Shown here in pieces: positions 12,051 to 64,000 of a stretch of DNA of 64,000 nucleotides. This stretch comes from Escherichia coli (lineage in GTDB: Bacteria > Pseudomonadota > Gammaproteobacteria > Enterobacterales > Enterobacteriaceae): NCBI RefSeq assembly GCF_030013595.1, contig NZ_CP122768.1; one strand, given 5' to 3'. How positions within the stretch are numbered: position 1 is the stretch's first letter; every line of letters starts with the position of its first letter. The notes under the pieces were generated by a model, which saw only the letters and a program-made list of their open reading frames with translations, was not told where the DNA came from and made no database searches. Made by a program: the position numbers and the translations under genes.

Positions 12051-12403
12051 ATGTTTTCGAAATGGAAGGGTTTCTTCGCGGGAAATGTGTACCGCGAGAT
12101 CTGAAAGTGAACGAAACAAATGCTGAGTACCTGTTACGTAAATTCGACGCGCTTGAAGCTAAATGTGCGGCACTGGAAAACAAAATAATACCAGTGTCAG
12201 CTGAACTGCCACCAGCAAATGAAAGTGTTCTGTTATTTGATGCTAACGGAGAAGGCTGGCTGATTGGCTGGCGTTCTCTCTGGTACACCTGGGGACAAAA
12301 AGAAACCGGAGAATGGCAGTGGACATTTCAGGTCGGGGACCTTGAAAACGTCAATATCACTCACTGGGCAGTAATGCCAAAAGCACCGGAGGCTGGAGCA
12401 TAA
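12041..12403 (+). CDS. yfdS: YfdS-like prophage protein (DUF551)
   Basis: 120 aa, follows yfdR as in CPS-53. Confidence 0.65.
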   Translation: MRMNVFEMEGFLRGKCVPRDLKVNETNAEYLLRKFDALEAKCAALENKIIPVSAELPPANESVLLFDANGEGWLIGWRSLWYTWGQKETGEWQWTFQVGDLENVNITHWAVMPKAPEAGA

Positions 12404-19253: not shown

Positions 19254-19946
19254 TTAGTTTAAGTTCACTTCTCTGACCGGGGTTACTGAACCATAATCAT
19301 TAACGGTCTGAAATTTCAGCTTTCCCTGCACTCCTGAGGGTAAGGGAATTTGTGAATTAACTCTGGGTGCAGCCATAGCATTCCCCAGTTTTTGGCTGCC
19401 CACTTGCAAGTTAACCAGGGTGACATAAAAAGGTGATGGATTATGAACATTGATATAGTTAGCGGATCGCGAAAACTTGAGTGTGTCCGGCGCTTCTGCG
19501 GGTAATTCTTGTAATTGAATTGGACGGAGAAATAATTTCATGCGCGATAAAATCGCCAGTTGCAAAACATTCCTGCCGTTCAATGCATTTTTATCTACCG
19601 AAGGGATCGTCTTAACATTCATCCAGAACAGAGACTCACGATCTGCCGCCAGCGGTGGACCGGTGTAAATAATACGCAAAGTATTTTCGCTTTTGGGTTC
19701 ACTAACAAACAGTGGCGGTGTAATGATGAATGACTTTTCTTTTACACCGCTGCTGTTTTCAATCCATGAATTGACCAGAAAGCGCTCATTGGTATGGCTA
19801 TTTCTAATCCATACCGCAGTCTGTTTAGCATCAGCGGGATAAATAATACGCGTGGCACCTAATGCGATCCCTCCGGCAGCATGGGCGCTGGTCGAAATGA
19901 TTAAATAAAATATAATGAGCATCAATAACTTTATTTTAGTCATCAT
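19254..19946 (-). CDS. sfmC: Fimbrial periplasmic chaperone SfmC
   Basis: 230 aa PapD-like chaperone with signal peptide. Confidence 0.9.
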
Positions 19947-20164
19947 AGTTAATACGCCTTGTGTATTCCTGACGGCAAAAATAAGGAGTATAAAGAAATG
20001 ATTGCTTTGGTTTCTTACAACACATCATTCCCTTTTCATTTAATAAAGCGGCATGATACAAAGTGAGCGTGATTTCGATTACATTGACACCATACCGCTT
20101 CAGACAACCGGTACATTACTTCGTTATAAGACGTGATATATAATTCAAAACTACGTAGTTTTGA

Positions 20165-20707
20165 TTATTCGTATCTCATAATAAAAGTCGCGTCAGCATT
20201 TGCTTGCCCTGCTGATGCACTTGTACCGGTGCCTTTATAACGTGCAGAAAAATGAAGAACGTTGGTCCCGGGGATCAAGTTCTGGTTGGTTGAGAAGCTA
20301 TTCCCATCAGGTTTGAGAATTGCGGATGTATTATCAAGTATTTCAATACCGACACCCGTTGCTGTTGTTGTATTAGTACTGGATGCAATGGCCAATAAAT
20401 TATCATTGATTGCATCCGCCTGACCAGAAAATGCAACGGCAGCATTAGCGGCAACGACAGGATCGCAGTCGTTCAACTGTATAGTGAATGGAATTAATGC
20501 AGAGGTATTACCAACAGCATTGAAAATATCGGTACGATATTGACCGAGTGTGACAACCTGGTCTGCCGAGTCAGTATTCACTGAACAGGCAGCATTCACC
20601 AGTTCGCCTTCAAAGTGAATTGTACCGCCATCTACAACGGCAGCATAACTACCCGTAGCGGCGAATAGTGCGGCGGCCAGCGCAGACGAAATAAATCTTA
20701 ATTTCAT
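20165..20707 (-). CDS. sfmA: Fimbrial major subunit SfmA
   Basis: 180 aa from [22 protein letters not shown]; AGGAA SD. Confidence 0.85.
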
Positions 20708-21177
20708 ATATATTCCTTCAATCTCATTTATCGACTCCACATCCGTATATAACCGATTACTTTATTTAAGACACTGATAGTAGTAAATTCCTTTTTATCC
20801 TCTAAGAATGTCTTAATTGAAAATATGCACTCTATTCTAAAAAATAGAGAGCCCCGTTAGATGAATACTTCCGCGCAAAATATATTCAACACAAATATAG
20901 ACCTGAAGCGGTAAATTACCAGGCTGAAAATTCTTTTTATATTGTCAGGTATTTCTTAAATTATCTTAATCCTTTGACAAGGAAATAAGTCAGTTCCAGA
21001 TTTACAACGCCATCATGGACGAAAAATGAAGCTTTCAATCTCAGCGACAGTGCGCCTCACCTTCGCACGAGGTCGCTTCACGCGATAAATCTGAAACGAA
21101 ACCTGACAGCGCGCCCCGCTTCTGACAAAATAGGCGCATCCCCTTCGACCTACGTAACAGATGGAATCCTCTCTCTG

Positions 21178-22044
21178 ATGGCAGCAAAGATTATTGACGG
21201 TAAAACGATTGCGCAGCAGGTGCGCTCTGAAGTTGCTCAAAAAGTTCAGGCGCGTATTGCAGCCGGACTGCGGGCACCAGGACTGGCCGTTGTGCTGGTG
21301 GGTAGTAACCCTGCATCGCAAATTTATGTCGCAAGCAAACGCAAGGCTTGTGAAGAAGTCGGGTTCGTCTCCCGCTCTTACGACCTCCCGGAAACCACCA
21401 GCGAAGCGGAGCTGCTGGAGCTTATCGATACGCTGAATGCCGACAACACCATCGATGGCATTCTGGTTCAACTGCCGTTACCGGCGGGTATTGATAACGT
21501 CAAAGTGCTGGAACGAATTCACCCGGACAAAGACGTAGACGGTTTCCATCCTTATAACGTCGGTCGCCTGTGCCAGCGCGCGCCGCGTCTGCGTCCCTGC
21601 ACCCCGCGCGGTATTGTCACGCTGCTTGAGCGTTACAACATTGATACCTTCGGCCTCAACGCCGTGGTGATTGGCGCATCGAATATCGTTGGCCGCCCGA
21701 TGAGCATGGAACTGCTACTGGCAGGTTGCACCACCACCGTGACTCACCGTTTCACTAAAAATCTGCGTCACCACGTAGAAAATGCCGATCTATTGATCGT
21801 TGCCGTCGGTAAGCCAGGCTTTATTCCCGGTGACTGGATCAAAGAAGGCGCAATTGTGATTGATGTCGGCATCAACCGTCTGGAAAATGGCAAGGTTGTG
21901 GGCGACGTCGTGTTTGAAGACGCGGCTAAACGCGCCTCATACATTACGCCTGTTCCCGGCGGCGTTGGCCCGATGACGGTTGCCACGCTGATTGAAAACA
22001 CGCTACAGGCGTGCGTTGAATATCATGATCCACAGGGTGAGTAA
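21178..22044 (+). CDS. folD: Bifunctional methylenetetrahydrofolate dehydrogenase/cyclohydrolase FolD
   Basis: 288 aa, [19 protein letters not shown]... Confidence 0.95.
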
Positions 22045-49345: not shown

Positions 49346-51694
49346 TCACCCCGCAAACTGCCTGAACAGCGCCTTACCCTTAACCAGTCGCGCGCCCAGC
49401 CAGCCGCCGCAAAGCGACAGCAGCAGCGCACCGCTGCACGGCAGAACAATCCACAATCGCCAGTCTGGCTCCCACGGAAAATCAAACACTTTCGCCTGCA
49501 ACACTGCCAGCGCCGTTTCCGCACCAATTGCGGCCACCAGGCCAGAAACAAACCCGAGCATGGCGAACTCACACCACAACGTGGTACGCAGCAGTTTTTT
49601 CCCCGCACCGAGTGTGCGCCACACCACCAGCTCCTGATGACGCTGACGCATTCCCACCTGCACCTGTGCCAGCAACAGCAACATACCGCAGGCGGTGACC
49701 AGCACCACCATCACCTCCAGCGCCCGACTTACCTGCTCCAGCACCTGACCGACCTGTTTTAAAATCGCGCCAATGTCTAACAGGCTAATGGTAGGGAACT
49801 GGCGGTTGAGTTGCGTCAACATGCCGTTGCCATTCTCCCAGCGGAAACTGGTAAGCCAGCTCTGCGGTTGCCCGTCTAATGCCCCTTCCGGGAAAATAAA
49901 ATAGAAATTAGGCCGCAGACTTTCCCAGTCCACTTTGCGCAGGCTGGTCACTTTAGCGCGGAACTCCTGGGTATCGCCCATAAAGGTGACTGTATCGCCG
50001 AGGCCAACGTTTAAGCGTTTCGCCAGCCCCTCTTCCATCGACACTTCATCGGCTTTTGGCGGCCAGTTACCGGCGACAATCGGATTATGATCGGGCCGCG
50101 TATTTTGCCAGGTAAGATTAAGTTCGCGATTGAGCGCCTCATCTTCATTGCCTTCTGTCGGCTTGCCGTTAATCGCCGTCAGTCTCGCCCGCACCACCGG
50201 ATAAAATGATTCCGGGACTATCTGATGTTCCGCGAGGAACGCTTTTAGCGGTGCTACCTGTTCTGTGGCGATGTTGATTAAAAAGTAGTTCGGGCTTTCT
50301 GGCGGTAGCTGCTGTTGCCAGCGGTCGAGCAGATCGCCACGCAATACCAGCAACAGCGCCAGCAGCATAAAGGAGAGCGAAAATGCCGAAAGCTGGCTTA
50401 ACGTTGACCACGGCTGACGTAACAGGCGGCTAACCGCCAGGCGCAGAGGCAGCGATTTCAGCGTCATGCGGCGAAGTACATTCAGCAGCATGCTGCCACC
50501 CATTAATCCGGCGAGCAGCACCACAACCACCACACTGACAATCGGCAGATAAAACTTCAGCGGCCAGACGTTCGCTACCACATCATTACGTAATACGCGT
50601 AAAGGCTGCGTTGCCAGCAACAAGCGGTATGGTCGTAGCCCCACCAGCAGCGAGATAACCGTCATGGTGCCCAGCGCCCATAGCCACGGCCAGAGGCTGG
50701 CTGGCGGTAGTGCAGCAGGCAGAACGGGCTTGAGCAGCACCATCAACACGTTTTCGAACAACAGGCCTATCGCCCCGCCGGTAACGGCTGAAAGCGCCAG
50801 CACCATCAACCACTGACCGACGATTAGCTTACGCAGTTGCGCTCGCCCTGCCCCCAGCGTTTTGAGGATCGCCACCAGATCGTAGCGACTGCGACAGTAA
50901 TGATTCATCGCCACCGCCACCGCTGCCACTGCCAGCAGCAAGGTCAGAAGCGCCGAAAGCAGCAGGAACTGTTGCGAGCGTTCCATCGAGCGCCCCAGCG
51001 CGCCTTCGTCCTGTTCCAGACCGTACCAGCGTTGTTCGGGTTTAAGCTGGGGTAACAACCATTTCTCATAGCCGTCGAGCTGGTTCTCGTTGCCGCCGAA
51101 TTTATAGCGCCAGGTGACCCGACTTCCCGGCTGCACGGCTCCGGTTTTATCGACATCCGCCAGATTCATCATCAGACGCGGAGCCATCTGGAAGGGGTTA
51201 AAACCGGAATCCGGTTCCTGAATCACTTCTCCGGCAATCCGCAAGGTGGCATCACCCACGTCGATGGTGTCGCCTGTTTTCAGGTTAAGCAGTGCCATCA
51301 GGCGTGGGGCCAGCAATACGCTGCCCGCCTGCGGTTTCAGGCCAGGGGGATTAGTTTGCAGATCGCCATACATCGGGTAGATATCATCCACCGCTTTGAC
51401 GTTCGCCAGCTGCGGTGTGTCGCCTGCAAATGTCATGGTGGCGAAAGTCAGCTGCTTGCCGACTTTCAGGCCGCGCTTTTGCGCTTCCTCCAGCCACGCT
51501 TGCGGCACTTCGCGCGAACTGCGCAACGCCCGATCGCCCGCCATAAACTCCCGGCTTTGCTGGCTTAAGCCCTTCTCCATGCGATCGCTGATATTGCCCA
51601 GCGCCAGCACGCAGGCCACCGCCAGGCTTAGCGCCAGCCAGACAATTAATAGCGACGGCGAGCGCCATTCGCGCCAGAACCAACGTGCAATCAT
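49346..51694 (-). CDS. ybbP: ABC transporter permease YbbP (FtsX-like)
   Basis: 782 aa multi-pass membrane protein; 4-nt overlap with ybbA. Confidence 0.9.
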   Translation of the reverse strand: MIARWFWREWRSPSLLIVWLALSLAVACVLALGNISDRMEKGLSQQSREFMAGDRALRSSREVPQAWLEEAQKRGLKVGKQLTFATMTFAGDTPQLANVKAVDDIYPMYGDLQTNPPGLKPQAGSVLLAPRLMALLNLKTGDTIDVGDATLRIAGEVIQEPDSGFNPFQMAPRLMMNLADVDKTGAVQPGSRVTWRYKFGGNENQLDGYEKWLLPQLKPEQRWYGLEQDEGALGRSMERSQQFLLLSALLTLLLAVAAVAVAMNHYCRSRYDLVAILKTLGAGRAQLRKLIVGQWLMVLALSAVTGGAIGLLFENVLMVLLKPVLPAALPPASLWPWLWALGTMTVISLLVGLRPYRLLLATQPLRVLRNDVVANVWPLKFYLPIVSVVVVVLLAGLMGGSMLLNVLRRMTLKSLPLRLAVSRLLRQPWSTLSQLSAFSLSFMLLALLLVLRGDLLDRWQQQLPPESPNYFLINIATEQVAPLKAFLAEHQIVPESFYPVVRARLTAINGKPTEGNEDEALNRELNLTWQNTRPDHNPIVAGNWPPKADEVSMEEGLAKRLNVGLGDTVTFMGDTQEFRAKVTSLRKVDWESLRPNFYFIFPEGALDGQPQSWLTSFRWENGNGMLTQLNRQFPTISLLDIGAILKQVGQVLEQVSRALEVMVVLVTACGMLLLLAQVQVGMRQRHQELVVWRTLGAGKKLLRTTLWCEFAMLGFVSGLVAAIGAETALAVLQAKVFDFPWEPDWRLWIVLPCSGALLLSLCGGWLGARLVKGKALFRQFAG

Positions 51695-52377
51695 GCTTCC
51701 TCCTGCAACTGCCCGTTCATCAGCCGTAAGCAGCGGTCGCAGCGTGCCGCCAGTTGCAGGTCGTGGGTCACCATAATCAACGTGGTGCCATGTTCACGGT
51801 TGAGGGAAAACAGCAGGTCGGCAATTTTATCGCCCGTCTGGCGGTCAAGGTTGCCGGTGGGTTCGTCGGCAAACAGCACATCAGGCCGACCATTAAAGGC
51901 TCGCGCCAGCGCCACTCGTTGCTGTTCGCCGCCGGAAAGCTGTGCCGGAAGATGATCAAGACGTTTACCCAGCCCTAACTGTTCGAGCAACGCTTTCGCT
52001 CCGTTACGACTTTCCGCGCTACTCTCACCGCGCAGCAGCGCCGGAAGCTCGACGTTTTCCAGCGCGTTAAGGGTAGGAATTAACATAAATGACTGAAAAA
52101 CAAAGCCGACGTGCTTCGCGCGCAACTTTGCCCGCGCTTCTTCGTCCATATTATGTAGCGGTTGTCCCACCAGACTCACTTCGCCACTGCTGCCGTCATC
52201 CAGCCCGGCGAGGATCGCCAGCAAGGTTGACTTACCCGATCCCGACTCGCCCACCAGTGCGATGGTCTCGCCACGTTTGACAACCAGCTCAACTCCGGTG
52301 AGGATGGAGAGTTCATGCTCCCCCTGACCGACGGACTTCTTAAGATGATGAACTTCAACAATGTTTTCCGCTGGCAT
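51691..52377 (-). CDS. ybbA: ABC transporter ATP-binding protein YbbA
   Basis: 228 aa; Walker A GESGSGKST, signature LSGGEQQR. Confidence 0.9.
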   Translation of the reverse strand: MPAENIVEVHHLKKSVGQGEHELSILTGVELVVKRGETIALVGESGSGKSTLLAILAGLDDGSSGEVSLVGQPLHNMDEEARAKLRAKHVGFVFQSFMLIPTLNALENVELPALLRGESSAESRNGAKALLEQLGLGKRLDHLPAQLSGGEQQRVALARAFNGRPDVLFADEPTGNLDRQTGDKIADLLFSLNREHGTTLIMVTHDLQLAARCDRCLRLMNGQLQEEA

Positions 52378-52971
52378 TTGCCCTTCCTGTTCCTGGTCCT
52401 GTTAACCTTCCGTGCCGCCGCAGCGGACACGTTATTGATTCTGGGTGATAGCCTGAGCGCCGGGTATCGAATGTCTGCCAGCGCGGCCTGGCCTGCCTTG
52501 TTGAATGATAAGTGGCAGAGTAAAACGTCGGTAGTCAATGCCAGCATCAGCGGCGACACCTCGCAACAAGGGCTGGCGCGCCTTCCGGCTCTGCTGAAAC
52601 AGCATCAGCCGCGCTGGGTGCTGGTAGAACTGGGCGGCAATGACGGTTTGCGTGGTTTTCAGCCACAGCAAACCGAGCAAACGCTGCGCCAGATTTTGCA
52701 GGATGTCAAAGCCGCCAACGCTGAACCATTGTTAATGCAAATACGTCTGCCTGCAAACTATGGTCGCCGTTATAATGAAGCCTTTAGCGCCATTTACCCC
52801 AAACTCGCCAAAGAGTTTGATGTTCCGCTGCTGCCCTTTTTTATGGAAGAGGTCTATCTCAAACCACAATGGATGCAGGATGACGGTATTCATCCCAACC
52901 GCGACGCCCAGCCGTTTATTGCCGACTGGATGGCGAAGCAGTTGCAGCCTTTAGTAAATCATGACTCATAA
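52345..52971 (+). CDS. tesA: Thioesterase I / lysophospholipase L1 TesA
   Basis: 208 aa from MMNFNNVF; SGNH hydrolase GDSLS motif. Confidence 0.9.
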   Translation: MMNFNNVFRWHLPFLFLVLLTFRAAAADTLLILGDSLSAGYRMSASAAWPALLNDKWQSKTSVVNASISGDTSQQGLARLPALLKQHQPRWVLVELGGNDGLRGFQPQQTEQTLRQILQDVKAANAEPLLMQIRLPANYGRRYNEAFSAIYPKLAKEFDVPLLPFFMEEVYLKPQWMQDDGIHPNRDAQPFIADWMAKQLQPLVNHDS

Positions 52972-53770
52972 AGCAACGGAGATCCTGACAGGTAAAGTTA
53001 TGCAAAAATCGGTCTTAATTACCGGATGTTCCAGTGGAATTGGCCTGGAAAGCGCGCTCGAATTAAAACGCCAGGGTTTTCATGTGCTGGCAGGTTGCCG
53101 GAAACCGGATGATGTTGAGCGCATGAACAGCATGGGATTTACCGGCGTGTTGATCGATCTGGATTCGCCAGAAAGTGTTGATCGCGCAGCCGACGAAGTG
53201 ATCGCCCTGACCGATAATTGTCTGTATGGGATCTTTAACAATGCCGGATTCGGCATGTATGGCCCCCTTTCCACCATCAGCCGTGCGCAGATGGAACAGC
53301 AGTTTTCCGCCAACTTTTTCGGCGCACACCAGCTCACCATGCGCCTGTTACCCGCGATGTTACCGCACGGTGAAGGGCGTATTGTGATGACCTCATCGGT
53401 GATGGGATTAATCTCCACGCCGGGTCGCGGCGCTTACGCAGCCAGTAAATATGCGCTGGAGGCGTGGTCGGATGCGCTGCGCATGGAGCTGCGCCACAGC
53501 GGAATTAAAGTTAGCCTGATCGAACCCGGTCCCATTCGTACTCGCTTCACCGACAACGTCAACCAGACGCAAAGTGATAAACCTGTCGAAAATCCCGGCA
53601 TCGCCGCCCGCTTTACGTTGGGGCCGGAAGCGGTGGTCGACAAAGTGCGCCATGCTTTTATTAGCGAGAAACCGAAGATGCGCTATCCGGTAACGCTGGT
53701 GACCTGGGCAGTAATGGTGCTTAAGCGCCTGCTGCCGGGGCGCGTGATGGACAAAATATTGCAGGGGTGA
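52961..53770 (+). CDS. ybbO: Short-chain dehydrogenase/reductase YbbO
   Basis: 269 aa; glycine-rich TGCSSGIG. Confidence 0.9.
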   Translation: MTHKATEILTGKVMQKSVLITGCSSGIGLESALELKRQGFHVLAGCRKPDDVERMNSMGFTGVLIDLDSPESVDRAADEVIALTDNCLYGIFNNAGFGMYGPLSTISRAQMEQQFSANFFGAHQLTMRLLPAMLPHGEGRIVMTSSVMGLISTPGRGAYAASKYALEAWSDALRMELRHSGIKVSLIEPGPIRTRFTDNVNQTQSDKPVENPGIAARFTLGPEAVVDKVRHAFISEKPKMRYPVTLVTWAVMVLKRLLPGRVMDKILQG

Positions 53771-53788
53771 GTTGAAGCGCGCGCTTAA

Positions 53789-54685
<897 letters not shown>

Positions 54686-54747
54686 GTTTCCGTTGATCGG
54701 CACATGAACCACAACGCCGGATGCGATGCTGCGCATCCGGCATTGCA

Positions 54748-55527
54748 TCATTTCTTCTTCAATTGCGTCACCACCAACTGGTGGCGCGAATTGTAAAACT
54801 TACGATAGGTTAAATAGCAGGCAATAATGGTCGACAGGCTGGCGGTTGAGAGCAGCATAAAGGTCACCATAATCTGATATTTAATCGCCTTCACCGGATC
54901 AATCCCGGCAAATATCAGCCCGGACATCATTCCTGGTAAACTCACTAAGCCAACCGTTTTTGCTGAATCGACCGTCGGAATTAAAGCCGCGCGAATACTG
55001 TCGCGAATCAATATCGCTGAAGCCTGTTTCGGCGTCGCGCCAAGACTCAGTTTCTCCTGAATCTGTTGCTGTTCGCTAATGACCCGTTGCCCTAAATTGT
55101 TGTAACACAACCCCACCGCTACCATGGCGTTACCGGCTATCATCCCGGCGATAGGGATCACCTGCATCGGGATAAATTCAATCGACCCGGAGAGAATCAG
55201 CACCGCCAGGGTAATTCCCGCACCAACCGTAATGGCAATAAACGATGAGATAAAAGCTTTAGCAATATATTTACTGCGTTTTTGCGCGTTCCACGCCGCA
55301 TTAAAGCAGATAAATAACACCATCAATAATGTCAGGCTGGCATCATCCACGCTGAAAATATACTTCAGCACATAGCCGACAATAATCAGCTGAATTATCG
55401 CGCGCCCGACGCTCCAGAGAATATCTTTCTCCAGCGCCAGTTTTTCTTTATGGCTAATTAAGATTGCCACCACCACCAGCATTAATGCCAGTGCCAATGA
55501 TTCGTTAGTAATATTATGCGAGTTCAT
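54748..55527 (-). CDS. fetB: Iron export ABC permease FetB (YbbM)
   Basis: 259 aa from MNSHNITNESL. Confidence 0.85.
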   Translation of the reverse strand: MNSHNITNESLALALMLVVVAILISHKEKLALEKDILWSVGRAIIQLIIVGYVLKYIFSVDDASLTLLMVLFICFNAAWNAQKRSKYIAKAFISSFIAITVGAGITLAVLILSGSIEFIPMQVIPIAGMIAGNAMVAVGLCYNNLGQRVISEQQQIQEKLSLGATPKQASAILIRDSIRAALIPTVDSAKTVGLVSLPGMMSGLIFAGIDPVKAIKYQIMVTFMLLSTASLSTIIACYLTYRKFYNSRHQLVVTQLKKK

Positions 55528-56191
55528 AGCGTGCTTCCTGCATTTCTCCGGCATGCGGTTGCAGTGTAATCACTTTATCCGCATGATTAATTTCGTCTTT
55601 ATCGTGTGTCACCCACAGCACGGCAATATTTTGCTCGCGCACATAGCGATGGATCATCTCATTAACGTTATGTTTATTACTTTCATCCAGCGCACTGGTT
55701 ATTTCATCCAGCAATAAAACTTTCGGCATAAATTGCAGGTTACGAATCAATGAGATGCGTTGTTTTTCACCACCAGATAGCTCGGCGATATTCTTCGTCA
55801 AAATGCTGTCCGGCAAAGCGAAGCGTTCGAGAAAATCGAGAAAAATGGCCGGGTCAGGCTGCTGGTTACGGATCTGCCAGGGAAAAATCAGGTTATCGTA
55901 TACCGTATCGCCAAACAGCGTCGGCGTCTGGGCGCAGTAAGACACTTGCTGGCGGTAGATTTCTGGCTTTAGTGTGCTGACATCCTCACCTTCAAACAGT
56001 AACGTTCCGCTGGTTGGGCTGATCAATGAAGCAACTATTTTTAGCAGCGTACTTTTGCCACAACCAGAAGGACCGGTAATTAACTTAAATTCGCCAGCAC
56101 GCAGCGAAAAATTGATGTTATTAAGAATCTTCGCATCACCCACCAGATATCCTACGTTTTGTAGCTGAACCAAAGGACTATTTTCCTGCAT
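55514..56191 (-). CDS. fetA: Iron export ABC ATPase FetA (YbbL)
   Basis: 225 aa; Walker A GPSGCGKST. Confidence 0.9.
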   Translation of the reverse strand: MQENSPLVQLQNVGYLVGDAKILNNINFSLRAGEFKLITGPSGCGKSTLLKIVASLISPTSGTLLFEGEDVSTLKPEIYRQQVSYCAQTPTLFGDTVYDNLIFPWQIRNQQPDPAIFLDFLERFALPDSILTKNIAELSGGEKQRISLIRNLQFMPKVLLLDEITSALDESNKHNVNEMIHRYVREQNIAVLWVTHDKDEINHADKVITLQPHAGEMQEARYELA

Positions 56192-56336
56192 CGCTGTTCC
56201 CTTTTTCTGATTTTTACTAAAAACAGTTTATCCTTCGCAGGAATAAGGGGGAACTCTCTTTCAGTAATCAGGTATAATTTGTTTAATCAAGCAGCAATTT
56301 TGCTGATTATGGACGGTACAACAGGAGGTTTTTCCG

Positions 56337-57254
56337 ATGCTTATCTTTATCCCGATTCTCATTTTTGTCGCGCTGGTCATTGTCGGCGCGGGCGTCAAAA
56401 TCGTGCCGCAGGGCTATCAATGGACGGTAGAACGTTTTGGTCGCTATACCAAAACGTTACAGCCGGGGCTCAGTCTGGTGGTGCCGTTTATGGATCGCAT
56501 TGGTCGCAAGATCAATATGATGGAGCAAGTGCTCGATATCCCTTCCCAGGAAGTTATCTCGAAAGATAACGCCAACGTTACCATCGACGCCGTGTGCTTT
56601 ATTCAGGTGATTGACGCGCCACGCGCTGCCTATGAAGTCAGCAATCTGGAGCTGGCGATCATCAACCTGACCATGACTAACATCCGTACCGTGTTGGGTT
56701 CAATGGAACTTGATGAAATGCTCTCTCAGCGCGACAGCATCAACTCACGCCTGCTGCGTATTGTCGATGAGGCCACCAACCCGTGGGGGATTAAAGTCAC
56801 CCGTATTGAAATTCGCGACGTGCGCCCACCGGCAGAGCTTATCTCTTCAATGAACGCGCAGATGAAAGCGGAACGTACCAAACGCGCTTACATCCTTGAA
56901 GCGGAAGGGATCCGTCAGGCGGAAATCCTCAAAGCCGAAGGTGAAAAACAGTCGCAAATCCTGAAAGCGGAAGGTGAACGTCAGTCGGCATTCTTACAGG
57001 CTGAAGCGCGTGAACGTTCCGCTGAAGCAGAAGCCCGCGCCACCAAAATGGTGTCTGAAGCCATCGCCTCCGGTGATATTCAGGCGGTGAACTACTTCGT
57101 CGCACAGAAATACACCGAAGCGTTACAGCAGATCGGTTCGTCCAGTAACAGCAAAGTAGTGATGATGCCATTAGAGGCCAGCAGCCTGATGGGGTCGATT
57201 GCCGGGATTGCCGAGCTGGTGAAAGACAGCGCCAACAAACGGACTCAGCCATGA
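56337..57254 (+). CDS. qmcA: SPFH/band-7 protein QmcA (YbbK)
   Basis: 305 aa stomatin-like. Confidence 0.9.
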
Positions 57255-57709
57255 TGGAGTTAATGGTCGTTCATCCACATATTTTCTGGCTCAGTCTCGG
57301 CGGGTTGCTGCTGGCAGCCGAGATGCTGGGCGGAAATGGTTATCTGTTGTGGAGCGGCGTGGCAGCGGTGATTACCGGCCTGGTGGTCTGGCTGTTGCCG
57401 CTGGGTTGGGAGTGGCAAGGGGTGATGTTTGCCGTCCTGACGCTGCTCGCCGCCTGGCTGTGGTGGAAATGGTTGTCGCGGCGGGTGCGCGAACAAAAGC
57501 ACAGCGACAGTCATTTAAACCAGCGCGGGCAGCAGCTGATTGGCCGACGTTTTGTGCTGGAATCTCCGCTGGTCAACGGGCGCGGTCATATGCGCGTCGG
57601 TGACAGTTCATGGCCTGTCAGCGCCAGCGAGGATCTCGGCGCAGGTACGCATGTTGAAGTCATTGCGATAGAAGGGATAACGCTGATCATCCGTGCGGTC
57701 ATCGCCTGA
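57251..57709 (+). CDS. ybbJ: NfeD-like membrane protein YbbJ
   Basis: 152 aa, coupled to qmcA. Confidence 0.85.
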
Positions 57710-57711
57710 TG

Positions 57712-57792
57712 CGACGCTGACGCGTCTTATCATGCCTACAAAATATGCCCGAATCGTAGGCCGGATAAGGCGCTTGCGCCGCATCCGGCATA
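57712..57792. repeat. REP palindromic elements
   Basis: gcgacgctgacgcgtc...aggccggataaggcgcttgcgccgcatccggc. Confidence 0.5.
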
Positions 57793-57811
57793 TAGCCGAG
57801 TAGAGGCAAAA

Positions 57812-58174
57812 TTACTCTTCCCGGCCTTTACCCATACTTTTTTGGTCTTCATCCGGATAGTGTTTTTTTAGATATTCCAGGACGTTTTTATTGACCTTGT
57901 GTTGGGTATACACCCACCCTTTCCAGTAATCAGGTTGGTCCAGGTAAACTTCTGGCGGAATGGTGAAATCAGAAAGCGTTAACCATTCGGCTAACAGATC
58001 GGGGTTTCGTTTCTGGATTAACTGCAACAGCATAATCAGTGACATAGCTGAGGCAGGAGCCGTACTATCGCCACTTAAATATTTCCACACTGTTGACCGG
58101 TTCGAACGAAAAAGGATCGGTAGCAATGCCCGGTCCAGATTCATTTCATTAAAAATCTTCTCAAATTCATTCAT
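57812..58174 (-). CDS. Hypothetical small protein, possible DNA-binding regulator, divergent from adhesin operon
   Basis: 120 aa; HTH-like segment NRSTVWKYLSGDSTAPASAMSL. Confidence 0.45.
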   Translation of the reverse strand: MNEFEKIFNEMNLDRALLPILFRSNRSTVWKYLSGDSTAPASAMSLIMLLQLIQKRNPDLLAEWLTLSDFTIPPEVYLDQPDYWKGWVYTQHKVNKNVLEYLKKHYPDEDQKSMGKGREE

Positions 58175-58358
58175 TTAAATTTTCCTGCCTGGCGTAAACC
58201 TCTTAAAAATTGAGATTTATCAAAGAAACGCATTTTAGCACACATCAGGAACCGCTTCACGTTTAGTCCAGAAACAGAATTTATTTCGCTTATCAAAACA
58301 AGTCTTTACTCTTTTTTACATTGAAAGAGCACAAAATGATTTTCGATTTTATTTATAT

Positions 58359-58379
58359 AAGAAACATTTTTTGTTTCTT
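58359..58379. promoter_or_regulatory. Palindromic operator-like site (aagaaaca-N5-tgtttctt)
   Basis: 21-bp palindrome in the divergent promoter region. Confidence 0.35.
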
Positions 58380-58490
58380 ATTGGTGGTGTTTACGCTTAC
58401 ACCAGACAAAAATGCGCTTTACATCACACAAATGGCGGCGTAGATTTCGATTAAATTGCAACGCAGTTTATTTCTTAAAACAATATTATT

Positions 58491-58507
58491 TGTTTCTTAT
58501 AGAAACA
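58491..58507. promoter_or_regulatory. Palindromic operator-like site (tgtttct-tat-agaaaca)
   Basis: Same half-site as 58359-58379 in opposite arrangement, about 35 bp upstream of the adhesin ATG. Confidence 0.35.
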
Positions 58508-58540
58508 TTAATGCGACTTGTTTTGAACAAGAGAAAATGA

Positions 58541-59557
58541 ATGAAAACTGTAAACGTAGCTTTACTGGCACTCATAATTTCAGCAACATCCAGCCCTGTT
58601 GTTTTAGCTGGTGATACCATTGAAGCGGCGGCAACAGAGCTTTCAGCCATTAACTCTGGCATGTCGCAATCGGAGATTGAGCAGAAGATTACCCGCTTTT
58701 TAGAACGCACAGACAACAGCCCCGCTGCGTATACCTATTTGACTGAACATCACTACATCCCTTCTGAAACACCTGATACCACTCAGACTCCCCCTGTCCA
58801 GACAGATCCTGACGCAGGACAAAAAACCGTTGCCGCTACAGGTGATGTACAGACAACCGCCCGTTATCAGAGCATGATCAACGCCCGACAGTCTGCGGTA
58901 ACTGATGCCCAGCAAACGCAAATTACAGAGCAACAGGCGCAGATCGTAGCCACACAAAAAACGCTCGCCGCGACTGGAGATACGCAAAATACCGCGCATT
59001 ATCAGGAGATGATTAATGCCAGGCTGGCGGCTCAAAATGAGGCTAATCAGCGCACTACCACGGAACAAGGGCAGAAAATGAATGCACTGACAACCGATGT
59101 GGCAGCACAACAGCAAAAAGAAAGGGCTCAATACGATAAACAAATGCAAAGTCTGGCGCAGAAGTCTGTCCAGGCACATGAGCAAATTGAAAGTCTGAGA
59201 CAAGATTCCGCACAAACGCAGCAACAGTTAACCAACACGCAAAAACGGGTCGCAGATAACAGCCAACAAATTAACACGCTCAATAACCATTTCGATTCTC
59301 TGAAAAACGAAGTTGAGGACAATCGTAAAGAAGCCAATGCGGGAACTGCATCAGCCATCGCTATCGCCTCACAACCACAGGTGAAAACCGGTGACTTGAT
59401 GATGGTGTCAGCGGGAGCGGGAACCTTCAACGGTGAATCTGCGGTGTCTGTAGGAACATCTTTTAATGCCGGAACGCATACGGTACTTAAAGCAGGTATT
59501 TCTGCGGATACACAATCTGATTTCGGTGCGGGTGTCGGCGTGGGATATTCGTTCTAA
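58541..59557 (+). CDS. Short trimeric autotransporter adhesin (YadA-like C-terminal anchor)
   Basis: 338 aa; signal peptide; repeated stalk motif AATGD(V/T)Q(T/N)TA(R/H)YQ(S/E)MINAR; anchor ...GDLMMVSAGAGTFNGESAVSVGTSFNAG...GVGVGYSF ending in aromatic residue. Confidence 0.7.
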   Translation: MKTVNVALLALIISATSSPVVLAGDTIEAAATELSAINSGMSQSEIEQKITRFLERTDNSPAAYTYLTEHHYIPSETPDTTQTPPVQTDPDAGQKTVAATGDVQTTARYQSMINARQSAVTDAQQTQITEQQAQIVATQKTLAATGDTQNTAHYQEMINARLAAQNEANQRTTTEQGQKMNALTTDVAAQQQKERAQYDKQMQSLAQKSVQAHEQIESLRQDSAQTQQQLTNTQKRVADNSQQINTLNNHFDSLKNEVEDNRKEANAGTASAIAIASQPQVKTGDLMMVSAGAGTFNGESAVSVGTSFNAGTHTVLKAGISADTQSDFGAGVGVGYSF

Positions 59558-59610
59558 TTTTAACAGCAATTTCTTATTCGCAATTTTCCGTACATTATTT
59601 AAGGTTAACA

Positions 59611-60033
59611 ATGATGAATAGCTCCATTAAATCGTTTTCCCTGCTGGCGGTTATATTACTGGCTGGCTGTAGTTCACCCACTTCCCGCATCGCAGATTGC
59701 CAGGCGCAGGGCGTCAGCCATGACACCTGTTATCTCGCAGAACAACAGCGTCAGACGGCTATTTTAAGTGCATCCGAAGCGCAGGCATTTAAAAATGCAG
59801 AAGCCGCACAACATGCCCAGGCGGCAAAGAAAGCCATTTATAAAGGATTTGGCATGACCTTTAGAATGAGCAGTAAAAACTTTGCTTATCTCAATGATTC
59901 ATTATGTGCAATTGATGAAGACAATAAAGATGCCACTGTTTATCAGTCAGGTCTGTATAACGTCATTGTTTATCATCACACAGGAAAAGTCGCCTTAATG
60001 AAAGAAGGTCAGTTTGTGGGTTATTTAAAATGA
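59611..60033 (+). CDS. Lipoprotein (lipobox LLAGC)
   Basis: 140 aa; signal peptide with LAGC lipobox; AAGG SD. Confidence 0.6.
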   Translation: MMNSSIKSFSLLAVILLAGCSSPTSRIADCQAQGVSHDTCYLAEQQRQTAILSASEAQAFKNAEAAQHAQAAKKAIYKGFGMTFRMSSKNFAYLNDSLCAIDEDNKDATVYQSGLYNVIVYHHTGKVALMKEGQFVGYLK

Positions 60034-60233
60034 AGGAGCAAAGGAAAATCCCCCTGACGCATATTATGATTATCGGTGCGTTTATTTTTGCCTTCTTGCA
60101 AGTGGTGTTATTAGCCTCCCTGGTTCACGCTGTGAATGTTAACAACGAAATCCAGGAAGGCTTATTTCAATCGGGGCGCATAATGGTAGAAAGTTTGCAG
60201 CATATTCTTTCGGTGCAAACGGGGATTAACTGA
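60030..60233 (+). CDS. Small single-pass membrane protein
   Basis: 67 aa; TM segment IMIIGAFIFAFLQVVLLASLV; ATGA-type coupling to the lipoprotein gene. Confidence 0.5.
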   Translation: MKEQRKIPLTHIMIIGAFIFAFLQVVLLASLVHAVNVNNEIQEGLFQSGRIMVESLQHILSVQTGIN

Positions 60234-60236
60234 TTT

Positions 60237-60644
60237 TCACCCCGCCCGATGATGACAGCAGCCGGAGAGATTTTCGATAATCGGGCAGTCGGCGCTGTCA
60301 TCACCAGGGCAGGCATTCGCCAGCGCCAGTAGCTGGTCGCGCATGGATTGCAGCTCCTCAATGTGCCGTTCGATCTCCGCTACCTTCTCCAGCGTGCGCC
60401 GTTTTACATCGGCGCTGTGACGCTGTGGGTCGTTAAACAGATTCACCAGTTCGCCGCTCTCTTCCAGGTTAAAGCCCACCTGGCGCGCCTGGCGCAGTAA
60501 GGTCAGTTCGTTGAGATGCTGCTGCGTGTAGGTTCGATAACCATTTTCGCTGCGCATCGGCGGCGTCACCAGCCCCTTCTCTTCATAGAAGCGAATGGCT
60601 TTGCTGGTCAGGCCGGTAATTTTTGCTACATCGCTAATGTTCAT
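60237..60644 (-). CDS. cueR: Copper-responsive MerR-family regulator CueR
   Basis: 135 aa [26 protein letters not shown]... with C-terminal Cys pair. Confidence 0.95.
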
Positions 60645-61816
60645 CGTTCGCGCAACGCCTCCTGTGCTTTATTAAAGGGTTTCAACAGATAATCCAGCAC
60701 GCTTTTTTTGCCGGTGCGGATATCGACCGTCGCCACCATGCCGGGAAATATCGGAAACTGCTGTTTATGTTTATTTTCCAGATGGTTGCTGAAAGTGCGA
60801 ATGTACACCCGATAGTAATAAACATCGCGCCGCACTTCATCCTGCACGGTGTCTGGTGATATCACCGCCACTTCTCCCGGCAGGCCGCCGTAGATGGAGT
60901 AATCGTAGGCAGTTATTTTCACCAGCGATTTTTGCCCCGGGTGGATAAACGCCACATCGCGCGGGGAGATTTTTGCCTCAATCAGCAGTTGCTCATCCAG
61001 CGGCACGATGGTCATCAGTTTACCACCGGGGGCAATGACGCCGCCAACCGTGGTGACGTCAATGTCCTGAACAATGCCACGTACCGGCGCGGTAAAGTTG
61101 AGCCGGGTGAGAGAATCTTCCCGCCCGCGGATCACCGAACGCTGGGTTTCCACTTCCGCATTGGCTTTCGCTAACTCTTCGCGCGCCTGAACGTAATATT
61201 GCGTGCGCACGTCGCTGAGTTTGTTTTCCAGTTCATTGGCCTGGCGTTGCAGGCGCAGCACTTCAACGCTGCTCGCCGCCCCCTGTTTTACCAGCGGCAG
61301 GGTCATCGCCAGTTCGCGGTTGACCAGGCTAATCCCCTGCGTCAGCCCGGTGGTGGCTTTGTTCAACCCGTCGCGGCGAGTGTTGTACAACGCCGTTTCC
61401 GACTCGATAAGTTCGGGGAATTTATTCAGTTCGTCAGGGAAGACCAGCGGTTTATTACTCACTTCCGCCCGCAGCCGCGCCGAGGTTGCCAGCGCCGCGT
61501 ACAGCCGCGACATTGCTTCCTGGACGTCGGATTCCGTTTTGGTGCGGTTAAGCTGCGCCAGCGGCTGGCCCTGTTCAACAATATCGCCAACCTTGACGTC
61601 GAGATGATACAGAATTCCGCCTTCCAGCGACTGCACCACCTGTTCGCGCCCGGAAGGTTCTACCGTGCCGCTGCCGGTGGTGACTTCATCAAGCTGGAAG
61701 TACCACGCCCAGCCGAGAAAACAGAGCAGCATCACAGCGGTAACGCGTACCGCCAGCGCCGAACGCGGCAGGCGGGGTTCAGTCAGGCCACGGTTGTATT
61801 GCAGTTGTCCATTCAT
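60641..61816 (-). CDS. Type I secretion membrane fusion protein (HlyD family)
   Basis: 391 aa; N-terminal TM, long coiled-coil, C-terminal beta domain. Confidence 0.85.
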
Positions 61817-64000
61817 GCGGCAGACCCCTTATTCTTCTCCTGCAACACCACCCGTCGCGTCGTGGGTTCGCTCTGTTCACGCAAAATGGCCTCTTTCGCT
61901 CCATCCATCACAATCCGCCCCTGATCCATCACGATGATCCTGTCCACCAGTTGCAGCATCGCCGTGCGGTGAGTAGCGATGACCAGCGTGCGATGCCCAA
62001 CCCATTGTTTTAGTTGTTCAATTAAATACGCTTCTGCCATTTCGTCCAGCGAGGCGCTGGGTTCATCGAGCAGCACGATATTGGGTTGAGAGATGAGTAG
62101 CCGCGCCAGCAGCAGCGTTTGCCGCTGACCGCCAGAAAGACCAAATCCCCCTTCCTGAATCATGTAGTTGAGGCCGTTTTTCTGCTTCTGCACAAAGGGC
62201 AGCGCCCCGCTGAGCGTTAACGCGCGTTCGATATCTTCATCGCTGGCTTCCGGCATCCCCATGGTGAGGTTTTCCCGCAGTGAACCGAAAAATAGTCGCC
62301 CGGTCTGGCTGAGTAGCCCCATGTCGCGGCGCAGATCCGCCGGATCAAGCTGACCGATGCTGATGTTATCCAGCAGCACCTGCCCCTGCTGGGCGATACG
62401 CATTCCGGCGAGCATTTGCAGTAGCGTTGATTTACCCGCGCCGTTGCGCCCAAGAATGGCGATTTTCTCTCCGGCCTGAATGTTGAGTTTGCCAATCGCC
62501 ACATCGGCAATTTTCTCTTCTTCGTCGTAATAAAAGATAGCGTTGCTGAACTGATAATTGCCGTGCAGTACCGCTTTATGCACCAGCTTGCCGTGTTCCG
62601 GCTGATCCACCGGGCGCTTCATCAGTTCATCAAGGCCGTTGCGTGCCACTTTCGCCTGCTGCCAGCGCGAGAGTACGCCGGAAATCTGCGACAGCGGCGC
62701 AATAGTACGCGAAGCCAGGATCGTCGTTCCCACCAGTGCGCCGGTGGTCATGTCGCCGTTCATCACCATAAAGCAGCCCACCAACAGCACCACGACGTAG
62801 ACGATGGATTGCACTTCCTGAGTCCAGGTGAGCAGTAGCCCGGTGAGAAAACGTTGCTTCATACTGATGGACGAGGCCACGTCGTTGGTGTGGTTCCACT
62901 GATTCTGAAAACGCTGTTCAGCACGCAGCAGTTTAATATCTTCAATCGACTGCACGGCTTCCACCAGCGTAGCGTTGCGTACCGCTGACTCGCGCATTCC
63001 TTCGTTCGCCAGCCGCGCCAGCGGGCGTTGCACCAGCAGGCCAGGGATCACTAATAACGGCAGTGCCAGCAAAACCACCAGCACCAGCCAACCGCCGATC
63101 ATCCACAAAATAAAGACAAACAGCAGGAAGAACGGCAGATCCGCCACTGCACCAATGGTGGTGGAGGTGATCAGCTCCCGCACCGATTCCAGTTCGCGGA
63201 TCTGCGAGATAAACGATCCGGTGGATTTCGATCGCACGTTATTTTTCAGCCGTAATGCGTGACCAAAAACGCGATCCGAAATGCGCAGATCCGCCCGCTT
63301 GCCGATCACATCCGAAAGATGTGTGCGCACCATACGCATACAGAATTCAAACAGGATCGCCATCATCACCCCGGCGAACAGCACCCACAGCGTCGGGTAG
63401 GACTGCGCCGGAACCACCCGGTCGTAAACCTGCATCGAGAAAATCATCGCCGCCAGCGCCAGCACGTTCGCCACCAGTGACGCCAGCATAATATCGCCAT
63501 AGCGCCGCCAGTCTTTTAGCGAGAGATTCCAGAACCAGTTCGCCTGATACGGGCGAATGTAGTCATCCACCCGCGCGTCAGGGATTGCGCTGAGCGGGCG
63601 CAGTAGCGCCAGTTCAACGATTTTATCCTCAACATCCGCGACGTTAAGCGTAGTTTCCAGCCCTTCGTCACCGCTGAACTGAATGCTGATATTGTCGTGA
63701 TTGTCACGGCGGGTGATTTGCGCCAGCGTGGTCGGAATAGAGGTATCGACCGTCAGGACAAAATCACTGGAGGAGGTGATATTCCCCGCCAAATCCACCA
63801 CTCGCGCGCTGTAGGTGTAGGCACCGCTGACCAGCCCGCTGTCGCTGTAGGTCCAGTTCAGCGCGCCGACCATCGTCACCGCGCCTAACAGCAGGCCGTT
63901 GCGGTAGAGGTAAACCACTTCACCGCTGGCAAGCGGCGCGGAGAGCACGCCGTTCAGCAATGGCGTAGTGTCGTCGGTGGCCTGCGAACTGCTTAATGTC
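61813..64000 (-). CDS. Type I secretion ABC transporter (HlyB/PrtD-like) with in-frame N-terminal Ig-like (Big) adhesin-type repeat; ORF open at window end, 5' partial
   Basis: TMD then NBD with Walker A GRNGAGKST, signature LSGGQRQ, Walker B VLLDEPSASLD; frame has no stop through 64000; ORF track start at 63960 is a TTG. Confidence 0.85.
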   Translation of the reverse strand, partial: TLSSSQATDDTTPLLNGVLSAPLASGEVVYLYRNGLLLGAVTMVGALNWTYSDSGLVSGAYTYSARVVDLAGNITSSSDFVLTVDTSIPTTLAQITRRDNHDNISIQFSGDEGLETTLNVADVEDKIVELALLRPLSAIPDARVDDYIRPYQANWFWNLSLKDWRRYGDIMLASLVANVLALAAMIFSMQVYDRVVPAQSYPTLWVLFAGVMMAILFEFCMRMVRTHLSDVIGKRADLRISDRVFGHALRLKNNVRSKSTGSFISQIRELESVRELITSTTIGAVADLPFFLLFVFILWMIGGWLVLVVLLALPLLVIPGLLVQRPLARLANEGMRESAVRNATLVEAVQSIEDIKLLRAEQRFQNQWNHTNDVASSISMKQRFLTGLLLTWTQEVQSIVYVVVLLVGCFMVMNGDMTTGALVGTTILASRTIAPLSQISGVLSRWQQAKVARNGLDELMKRPVDQPEHGKLVHKAVLHGNYQFSNAIFYYDEEEKIADVAIGKLNIQAGEKIAILGRNGAGKSTLLQMLAGMRIAQQGQVLLDNISIGQLDPADLRRDMGLLSQTGRLFFGSLRENLTMGMPEASDEDIERALTLSGALPFVQKQKNGLNYMIQEGGFGLSGGQRQTLLLARLLISQPNIVLLDEPSASLDEMAEAYLIEQLKQWVGHRTLVIATHRTAMLQLVDRIIVMDQGRIVMDGAKEAILREQSEPTTRRVVLQEKNKGSAA

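Follow-up and report, generated by a model that had tools for sequence, protein, structure and literature searches.

A reading frame shared by an adhesin and its exporter

In the 64,000-nucleotide stretch of Escherichia coli DNA analysed here (the window), the gene for the ABC transporter of a type I secretion system (T1SS) has no evident beginning; its reading frame continues upstream into an adhesin-type Ig-like repeat. This raises the question of whether a giant adhesin has been fused to its own exporter and, if so, whether the fusion is a working protein or the remnant of a broken system. The frame extends on the minus strand from 63999 to 61813, giving a translation of 728 codons that is free of stops until the TGA at 61815–61813. 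Residues 5–86 of this translation match the Pfam family Big_13 (PF19077; E = 3.9e-8), bearing out the initial annotation, which had described a frame open to the window edge through a Big-type repeat. The remainder is an ABC transporter, with an ABC_membrane transmembrane domain (62707–63492, minus strand; residues 170–431, Pfam E = 2.3e-31) followed by an ABC_tran nucleotide-binding domain (62056–62487, minus strand; residues 505–648, Pfam E = 4.3e-27) that carries both the Walker A motif GRNGAGKST and the ABC signature LSGGQRQ.

The initial annotation had also held that the frame has, upstream of its transmembrane domain, neither an ATG nor an alternative start preceded by a Shine-Dalgarno sequence. 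The first half of this statement does not stand, as in-frame ATG codons are present at 63873, within the Ig repeat, and at 63489, at the start of the first transmembrane helix (TM1), together with several GTG and TTG codons. The second half does: no Shine-Dalgarno-like motif lies 4–12 nt before any in-frame ATG, GTG or TTG that precedes the transmembrane domain or coincides with its start, and there is no excess of promoter-like sites from which the ABC part might be expressed independently. We therefore rejected a PrtD-like ABC transporter made from Met171 by way of an internal promoter and start. The TTG at 63960, listed as the start of the open reading frame, is merely the first start-type codon past the window edge.

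The OI-28 / SiiEA island

The genes that follow identify the locus. An intact HlyD-family membrane fusion protein of 391 residues (60641–61816, minus strand; TIGR01843, 326.7 bits against a cutoff of 208.65) begins with an ATG that overlaps the TGA of the fused frame (ATGA), and its own stop codon is overlapped by the ATG of cueR (60237–60644, minus strand; 135 residues), annotated as such in collinear genomes, which forms the chromosomal flank of the island. The T1SS locus next to cueR with HlyD downstream is thus as first described, and its presumed absence from K-12 is supported by the K-12-like arrangement of strain IH5, in which ybaT directly adjoins cueR, and by the literature on OI-28, which is not found in K-12 (PMC12758282). 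In intact islands the order is ybaT, a tolC-like outer membrane protein gene, the giant adhesin gene siiEA, an hlyB-like ABC transporter gene, an hlyD-like membrane fusion protein gene and cueR; the cueR side is seen in the window, and the ybaT and TolC side, which lies outside it, is taken from collinear relatives. The adhesin is named 'BapA-related adhesin SiiEA' by PGAP, and the precomputed Pfam matches of a sister locus (L005, see below) place Big_6, Big_13 and BapA_N on its 6,735-residue product, Big_13 being the family found in the window itself.

Both the position between ybaT and cueR and the gene order correspond to OI-28 of the enterohaemorrhagic E. coli (EHEC) O157:H7 strain EDL933, with z0608 (tolC28), z0609/z0615 (rtxA28/rtxB28), z0634 (hlyB28) and z0635 (hlyD28) (PMC12758282), and the nucleotide identity to O157 genomes is 94.2% over a stretch that takes in the ABC gene, codon 87 onward, together with the first part of hlyD. 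We conclude that this is the T1SS adhesin island already described as OI-28 / SiiEA. The window allele differs from that of EDL933, in which the genes are separate, in being a single open reading frame that lacks 819 codons at the adhesin's C-terminal end and 86 at the transporter's N-terminal end. Loss of hlyB28 or of the RTX adhesin genes lowers adherence and mouse colonisation, a phenotype shown for intact EHEC islands only (PMC12758282).

A 2727-bp deletion with six bases of microhomology

Three-way comparison of the window with the adhesin and ABC sites of a near-identical E. coli genome, NZ_CM149870.1 (L001), shows that 2727 bp, or 909 codons, are missing. Window positions 64000–63712 run collinear with an internal part of siiEA, positions 63717–61700 with the ABC gene, starting at its codon 87. 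The former segment (63712–64000, minus strand), a Big_13 Ig-like repeat, is the last retained part of a truncated siiEA whose frame continues past the window edge; it matches L001 16991–17283 at 292 of 293 bases (99.66%). The latter contains an HlyB/LssB-type T1SS ABC transporter gene, preserved from codon 87 through its stop (61813–63717, minus strand), 99.95% identical to L001 20001–22018. The two meet at 63712–63717 (minus strand) in ATCACC, a 6-bp microhomology common to both parental sequences, which agree at 9 of 10 positions over ATCACCnGCC. The sequences so joined are unique rather than repeated, and these 6 bp are all that they share.

The lost segment comprises the last 819 codons of siiEA with its TAG stop, an ATA spacer and codons 1–86 of the ABC gene. 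Three intact loci, L001, L003 and L006, have the two genes in one phase, as TAG-ATA-ATG, and since the length of the deletion is a multiple of three the result is one continuous open reading frame. Its junction is marked by the tryptic peptide VVDLAGNITSSSDFVLTVDTSIPTTLAQITR and by the 32-mer GCTGGCGCAAATCACCCGCCGTGACAATCACG. An in-frame fusion of the adhesin to its own exporter, through loss of the adhesin C-terminus with its secretion signal, had been one of the possibilities raised at the outset, and the comparison with NZ_CM149870.1 supports it; the accompanying loss of the ABC gene's start and first 86 codons was unforeseen. Because the deletion took these as well, no start codon can be found for the ABC part, whose native ATG is gone and which has no in-frame start with a Shine-Dalgarno sequence before TM1.

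Illegitimate recombination or replication slippage between the two ATCACC copies very probably removed the 2727 bp. The outcome is one open reading frame of about 6,735 residues, joining adhesin residues 1 to about 6,100 to ABC residues 87–720; its part upstream of 64000 is inferred from sister assemblies, the window's own genome having been seen as far as that position. The allele is a clean natural case of a microhomology-mediated deletion, one in which a secreted substrate and the transporter dedicated to it have become joined.

Predicted consequences for secretion

On the transporter side the deletion falls in the N-terminal C39-like domain (CLD). An intact 720-residue homologue aligns end to end (residues 10–701) with HlyB in the HlyB-HlyD-TolC structures (PDB 7SGR, 8DCK), CLD included, and gives a weak Peptidase_C39 match over residues 12–98; with the loss of residues 1–86 about two-thirds of this domain has been deleted from the window protein, leaving it incomplete. 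The profile of the LssB subfamily, TIGR03375, tells the same story. Both the window ORF (782.7 bits) and the intact relative (833.4 bits) exceed the NCBIfam cutoff of 693.1, but residue 10 of the homologue aligns at profile position 2, whereas alignment of the window ORF begins only at position 79 of 696. The transmembrane domain and the nucleotide-binding domain with its two motifs are retained.

On the adhesin side, the deleted tail bears FG-GAP_3, the RTX nonapeptide repeats (HemolysinCabind) and the T1SS C-terminal target domain TIGR03661 (38.7 bits against a cutoff of 17.6), the last at residues 810–912 of the relative's tail and wholly inside the deleted segment. The window adhesin thus has neither the RTX calcium-binding repeats near its C-terminus nor the type I secretion target domain.

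Comparison with the haemolysin system suggests what these losses may mean. The island resembles it in its HlyD-family membrane fusion protein and in a substrate with RTX repeats and a C-terminal signal. It differs in that the substrate is a 6,900-residue Ig-repeat adhesin rather than a pore-forming toxin, in that the CLD is truncated in the window allele, and in that the transporter belongs to the LssB subfamily (TIGR03375, 833 bits against 693.1) and falls below the HlyB subfamily cutoff (TIGR01846, 388 bits against 725.55). In HlyB the CLD, whose structure is known (3ZUA, cited in PMC11026475), binds the unfolded RTX domain and contacts HlyD through Lys56, Lys58, Lys62, Arg66 and Arg128, and HlyB without it cannot secrete (PMC11026475). 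The ABC part has lost most of the domain on which substrate binding, contact with HlyD and secretion depend in HlyB. The adhesin part lacks its C-terminal signal and RTX region, both needed by T1SS substrates, and would be anchored to a membrane protein on the cytoplasmic side.

The SPI-4 island of Salmonella enterica, with six genes of which two form the siiAB proton-channel pair, differs in this respect from the E. coli island, in which no such pair is annotated. The adhesins, likened here by description, are nevertheless of one type, as SiiE too is a giant non-fimbrial Ig-repeat adhesin with a dedicated T1SS encoded alongside (PMC6272769).

Deprived of the adhesin's secretion signal and of most of the transporter's C39-like domain, the system is predicted to be inactive. 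We consider it very probable that the window ends in a form of the OI-28 / SiiEA island altered by a deletion peculiar to one lineage, a pseudogenising fusion that has broken the system. That the system no longer secretes is the most likely outcome, on an analogy in which the need for the CLD is known from HlyB and not from the LssB-type transporter found here. That the reading frame was kept is best put down to chance, at odds of one in three, and the ORF is best taken for a pseudogene of recent origin. The locus reveals no new mechanism and is most likely a known colonisation system that is broken, not a new kind of protein. Gene-presence screens would score isolates of this lineage as positive for the OI-28 / SiiEA T1SS, and the 6,735-residue ORF, if called as a gene, would represent a misleading giant protein. 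The allele could also act as a natural knock-out for probing what the island does in commensal or animal-associated E. coli.

Across some 20 kb the fused frame remains unbroken in most of the assemblies examined, which counts against a pseudogene, as selection for the product would give the same result. A selected adhesin-ABC chimera, made and functional, might serve as a membrane-tethered cytoplasmic Ig-repeat scaffold, as a dominant plug or modulator on the HlyD/TolC-like channel, or as a CLD-less exporter of another substrate, and would amount to a naturally occurring fusion between a T1SS substrate and its transporter. Its intactness at 6,735 residues in about 20 assemblies fits this proposal, as do the untouched transmembrane and nucleotide-binding domains, HlyD and translational coupling; PrtD-type T1SS ABC transporters, moreover, function without an N-terminal domain, and alignment of the window ORF with the PrtD profile TIGR01842 starts at residue 170, right at the in-frame ATG at 63489. 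We nonetheless regard it as very improbable. This internal start has no Shine-Dalgarno sequence or promoter, the cognate substrate is without its signal, and relatives are losing siiEA by other routes. The differing gene calls in L007 (4,673 residues) and L017 (7,126 residues) suggest secondary lesions or errors; the 7,126-residue call, in JAUANK010000001.1, may stem from a true frameshift or a long-read homopolymer error where the ABC gene meets hlyD. The allele is, furthermore, limited to one near-clonal lineage whose divergence is too small to reveal selection: two sister assemblies, L005 and L007, differ at 5 positions in 21 kb, all nonsynonymous but too few to bear on selection. As the lineage is so young, no decay of the pseudogene is to be expected yet.

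Sister assemblies

The identical junction is present in L005 (GCA_036246605.1) and L007 (GCA_021649245.1), with the 32-mer at the same position. Over 64000–50641 the two are 99.993% and 99.978% identical to the window, and in both no stop interrupts the frame throughout the 10 kb upstream, a single gene being called across the junction. Eighteen further places are listed as similar, putting the carriers of the fusion at no fewer than about 20 contigs and at no more than 79 blocks, the number in which the collection indexes a 782-residue YbbP allele that co-occurs with it. Many draft assemblies made independently of one another share the fusion allele, within a single near-clonal lineage.

Misassembly is frequent in giant, repeat-rich adhesin genes, and an adhesin gene wrongly joined to the ABC gene, where the real genome has two normal genes, would explain why the junction occurs in none of the complete RefSeq genomes and why a 66-bp in-frame ybbP deletion lies in the same window. 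Such an error is highly improbable. The join links unique sequences with just 6 bp in common, and it is repeated exactly in assemblies from different projects (BLCK01, JAJARM01), besides the 18 similar places; an identical junction in independent assemblies is not an assembly artefact, nor do these assemblies contain a stop or frameshift that would separate two normal genes. The ybbP deletion, the second in-frame deletion in the window, likewise recurs in the fusion-bearing assemblies and, independently, in a complete genome of a different background.

Occurrence among genomes

Among complete genomes, 958 contain both halves of the fusion, and in all 958 the halves lie apart, with none spanning the junction; not one of the 5,426 complete RefSeq E. 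coli genomes contains the 40-base junction sequence. Three further searches were negative within their own scope: the 32-base junction has no exact match in a contig collection holding one genome per species, the TolC-like protein of a relative used as query returned no fusion-bearing contig, and a word-based protein search with a 190-residue junction peptide returned short proteins only, none across the junction, a false negative given that L005 and L007 carry it. A separate ABC gene is found in each of the 32 contigs read from a common YadA-like anchor gene (720 residues, 706 in one). The suggestion of an unusual natural fusion must accordingly be rejected, as every intact locus read has separate genes in place of a continuous architecture. 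Plain loss or readthrough of a stop codon between in-phase neighbours, for which a point mutation could suffice where only TAG-ATA intervenes in the three intact loci, can be dismissed together with a conserved single gene, since 2727 bp are gone, and with them the adhesin's stop, its RTX region and 86 codons of the ABC gene, where a single-base change would be expected, and two genes are present in every other locus read.

The nearest complete genomes are ~100% identical to the window over 23.7 kb and yet undeleted, and the deletion is recent. In relatives, siiEA is represented by frameshifted products of 936 and 5997 residues, or by versions of 5347 or 1969 residues, broken and short forms which support the view that constraint on siiEA is relaxed in this clade.

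Structure of the fused reading frame

The frame is open on translation for 728 codons on the minus strand (window 63999..61813), its first stop being the TGA at 61815-61813. A Pfam Big_13 Ig-like domain (E 3.9e-8) occupies the first 86 residues, followed by ABC_membrane at residues 170-431 and ABC_tran at residues 505-648. The adjoining minus-strand gene (61816..60641) encodes an HlyD-family membrane fusion protein (TIGR01843, 326.7 bits against a cutoff of 208.65), and its ATG overlaps the ABC stop as ATGA. The initial annotation described this region accurately apart from the literal statement that the frame has no ATG; in-frame ATGs at 63873 and 63489 fall within the Ig repeat and at the beginning of TM1, respectively. 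No Shine-Dalgarno-like motif lies upstream of these ATGs or of any in-frame GTG or TTG, and the number of promoter-like sites (1) is no higher than expected (1.6). Terminator-like hairpins with a T-run number 11 in window 60500-64000, above shuffled sequences (3.9 ± 2.2); all are weak, with 5-8 bp stems, and lie within coding sequence.

An in-frame deletion joining siiEA to its exporter gene

NZ_CM149870.1 and NZ_CM149862.1, both complete and both from pig faeces, match window 40000-63700 at ∼100% identity. At the locus of the former (L001), siiEA ('BapA-related adhesin SiiEA') ends in a TAG at 19739 and a 720-residue 'type I secretion system permease/ATPase' begins at 19743, followed by HlyD and cueR; siiEA is preceded by a TolC-family gene and ybaT. 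A further intact example, NZ_CP158426.1, encodes a TolC-like outer membrane protein (451 residues), SiiEA (6,924 residues), the ABC protein (720 residues), HlyD and CueR. In BLAST comparisons with L001, window 64000..63708 corresponds to positions 16991-17283, inside siiEA, and window 63717..61700 to positions 20001-22018, beginning at codon 87 of the ABC gene. Base-by-base comparison places the junction at a 6-bp microhomology, ATCACC (window 63717-63712), extending to 9 of 10 positions over ATCACCnGCC. The segment missing relative to L001 is 2727 bp, or 909 codons, and its absence between the siiEA and ABC parts bears out the first interpretation offered in the initial annotation, an in-frame adhesin-exporter fusion by deletion.

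In L001 and two further intact loci (L003 and L006) siiEA and the ABC gene share the same phase, spaced TAG-ATA-ATG. Since the deletion length is also a multiple of three, one open reading frame results, an outcome expected by chance in about 1 in 3 such deletions. The event is of an ordinary kind, a microhomology deletion that probably inactivates an accessory adhesin system, and its unusual look is due only to the two genes being in phase.

Domains lost and relationship to known systems

The deleted adhesin tail, 819 codons and the stop, contains three to four FG-GAP_3 repeats, RTX HemolysinCabind repeats and the TIGR03661 'type I secretion C-terminal target domain' (38.7 bits, cutoff 17.6). 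The intact ABC protein is LssB-type, matching TIGR03375 with 833 bits from profile position 2, and its residues 10-701 align with HlyB of the HlyB-HlyD cryo-EM structures 7SGR and 8DCK; it therefore possesses the HlyB-type N-terminal C39-like domain (CLD). In the window the TIGR03375 alignment begins only at profile position 79, residues 1-86 having been lost together with the native start and about two-thirds of the CLD.

The locus is the OI-28/SiiEA type I secretion adhesin island, with identical insertion site and gene order; nucleotide identity to O157 genomes is 94.2% across a stretch running from ABC codon 87 into the first part of hlyD. The island encodes a CLD-bearing type I ABC transporter of the LssB subfamily, with an HlyB-like build, and an Ig-repeat RTX adhesin of the BapA/SiiE kind. 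In contrast to such transporters, the window frame has neither a complete CLD nor its own start, and unlike the secreted RTX adhesins it lacks RTX repeats and a secretion signal. Because it fails the defining features of both families, a new architecture was rejected, and the frame is best regarded as a chimeric pseudogene that a deletion has produced from a known system. A limited literature search found no published description of the fused allele.

Reality and distribution of the allele

None of 958 complete RefSeq E. coli genomes holding both halves spans the junction, a 40-mer across it had no match in 5,426 complete RefSeq E. coli genomes, and an exact scan of species-representative genomes found none. 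A negative protein search for the fusion was set aside as a false negative: the word-indexed search returned only short proteins, missing 720-residue ABC proteins and a 6,735-residue fusion present in the same collection, and its negatives for giant proteins are not trustworthy. Fusion-bearing contigs were found instead by exact look-up of the window's HlyD sequence.

Two draft assemblies carry the exact 32-base junction. In L005 (GCA_036246605.1, BLCK01000021.1) just one gene is called across the locus, of 6,735 residues, encoding Big_6, Big_13 and BapA_N, then ABC_membrane and ABC_tran; 18 further places are listed as similar. In L007 (GCA_021649245.1) the single called gene has 4,673 residues. 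Both are collinear with window 64000..50641 (99.993% and 99.978% identity, respectively) and the frame stays open over the entire 10 kb upstream. We conclude from the shared junction, collinearity and open frame that the deletion is a true allele of a sequenced lineage rather than a product of misassembly. The called 6,735 residues differ by 2-11 from the 6,737-6,746 predicted from the native adhesin start, the deletion and the ABC end; this places the beginning of the fused frame at, or close to, that of native siiEA.

Only a small fraction of genomes carry the fused allele. The 782-residue YbbP form that the lineage also carries is indexed, as an exact sequence, in 79 blocks; of 24 contigs read for it, 22 resemble the fusion-bearing contig. 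By contrast, 6,100 blocks hold a common neighbouring gene, and in each of the 32 contigs read for that gene the ABC gene stands on its own, with 720 residues in all but one (706).

Predicted consequences for secretion

What is observed directly is where the deletion begins and ends, which domains it removed and how far the allele has spread. Type I substrates are recognised through a C-terminal signal and the RTX region, and as both are deleted we infer that secretion has been lost in the fusion lineage. The remaining adhesin part, ∼6,100 residues, would be tethered inside the cell, at the cytoplasmic N-terminal end of a membrane protein, and would have no way out. In the paradigm HlyB system the CLD binds the unfolded RTX domain and contacts HlyD through K56, K58, K62, R66 and R128, and HlyB without it does not secrete (PMC11026475); the homologous region falls within the 86 lost residues. 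In the homologous OI-28 of EHEC O157:H7, losing any one of hlyB28, hlyD28, tolC28 and the two RTX adhesin genes by deletion lowered Caco-2 adherence and mouse colonisation (PMC12758282), and by this analogy the fused allele probably abolishes that function. That the chimera is expressed and functional is highly improbable.

Decay of siiEA in the clade

Close relatives carry siiEA frameshifted (936+5997 residues), with its 5′ part lost (5,347 residues), or as a 1,969-residue form. Decay appears to strike this gene repeatedly, and the variety of forms is consistent with selection on the system having been relaxed in the clade. The loci compared are L001 (about 1746-1749), L008/L010/L015, L012 and L027; the 5,347-residue call leaves about 4.8 kb of 5′ sequence uncalled. 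Other relatives retain siiEA of 6,925 residues.

L005 and L007 differ at five sites in 21 kb, all five nonsynonymous. Because the lineage is very young, the intact 20-kb fused frame is no argument for selection. The ABC parts of L005 and L007 each carry a private nonsynonymous difference from the window, V136G (L005 locus 8248, window 63569) and S429L (L007 locus 9127, window 62690). In this part T506A is all that separates the window from H1; the site precedes the Walker A motif by three residues, and alanine at 506 is found in NZ_CP158426.1 as well.

The 4,673-residue call of L007 and a 7,126-residue call running into HlyD in L017 may already be secondary lesions, or sequencing errors. In L017 (GCA_030346565.1, JAUANK010000001.1, a 4.6-Mb contig) the call equals 6,735 + 391 residues, the gene ending at locus 1054, and combines the adhesin, the ABC part and HlyD in a single protein. 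The length of the call implies that the frame has shifted at the ATGA overlap, a boundary outside the sequence compared; either decay has genuinely gone further or a long read carries an indel error.

The ybbP and cueR flanks

ybbP (window 49346..51694, minus strand) has a 66-bp, 22-codon in-frame deletion, giving 782 residues compared with 804 in nearly all E. coli; its junction (50484-50491) lies between 8-bp direct repeats, ATGCTGCT. It is found together with the fusion in L005 and L007. Among complete genomes the ybbP junction occurs only in IH5 (NZ_CP168949.1), which has no island, and so arose at least twice.

The K-12-like IH5 retains ∼95 nt of the hlyD 3′ end directly upstream of cueR, 92% identical (12297-12391 of its locus, window 60644-60739) and called by PGAP as a partial frameshifted ORF. 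This remnant suggests that the K-12-type arrangement arose through island deletion. As the hlyD stop overlaps the ATG of cueR, the upstream signals of cueR seem to sit within the hlyD 3′ end.

Between cueR and ybbJ (window 57812-60233) are four extra ORFs absent from IH5 at this position; those of 140, 67 and 120 residues have no Pfam match, and another encodes a 338-residue YadA-anchor trimeric autotransporter-like protein. The module with the YadA-anchor ORF is very common in E. coli, occurring in 6,100 blocks.
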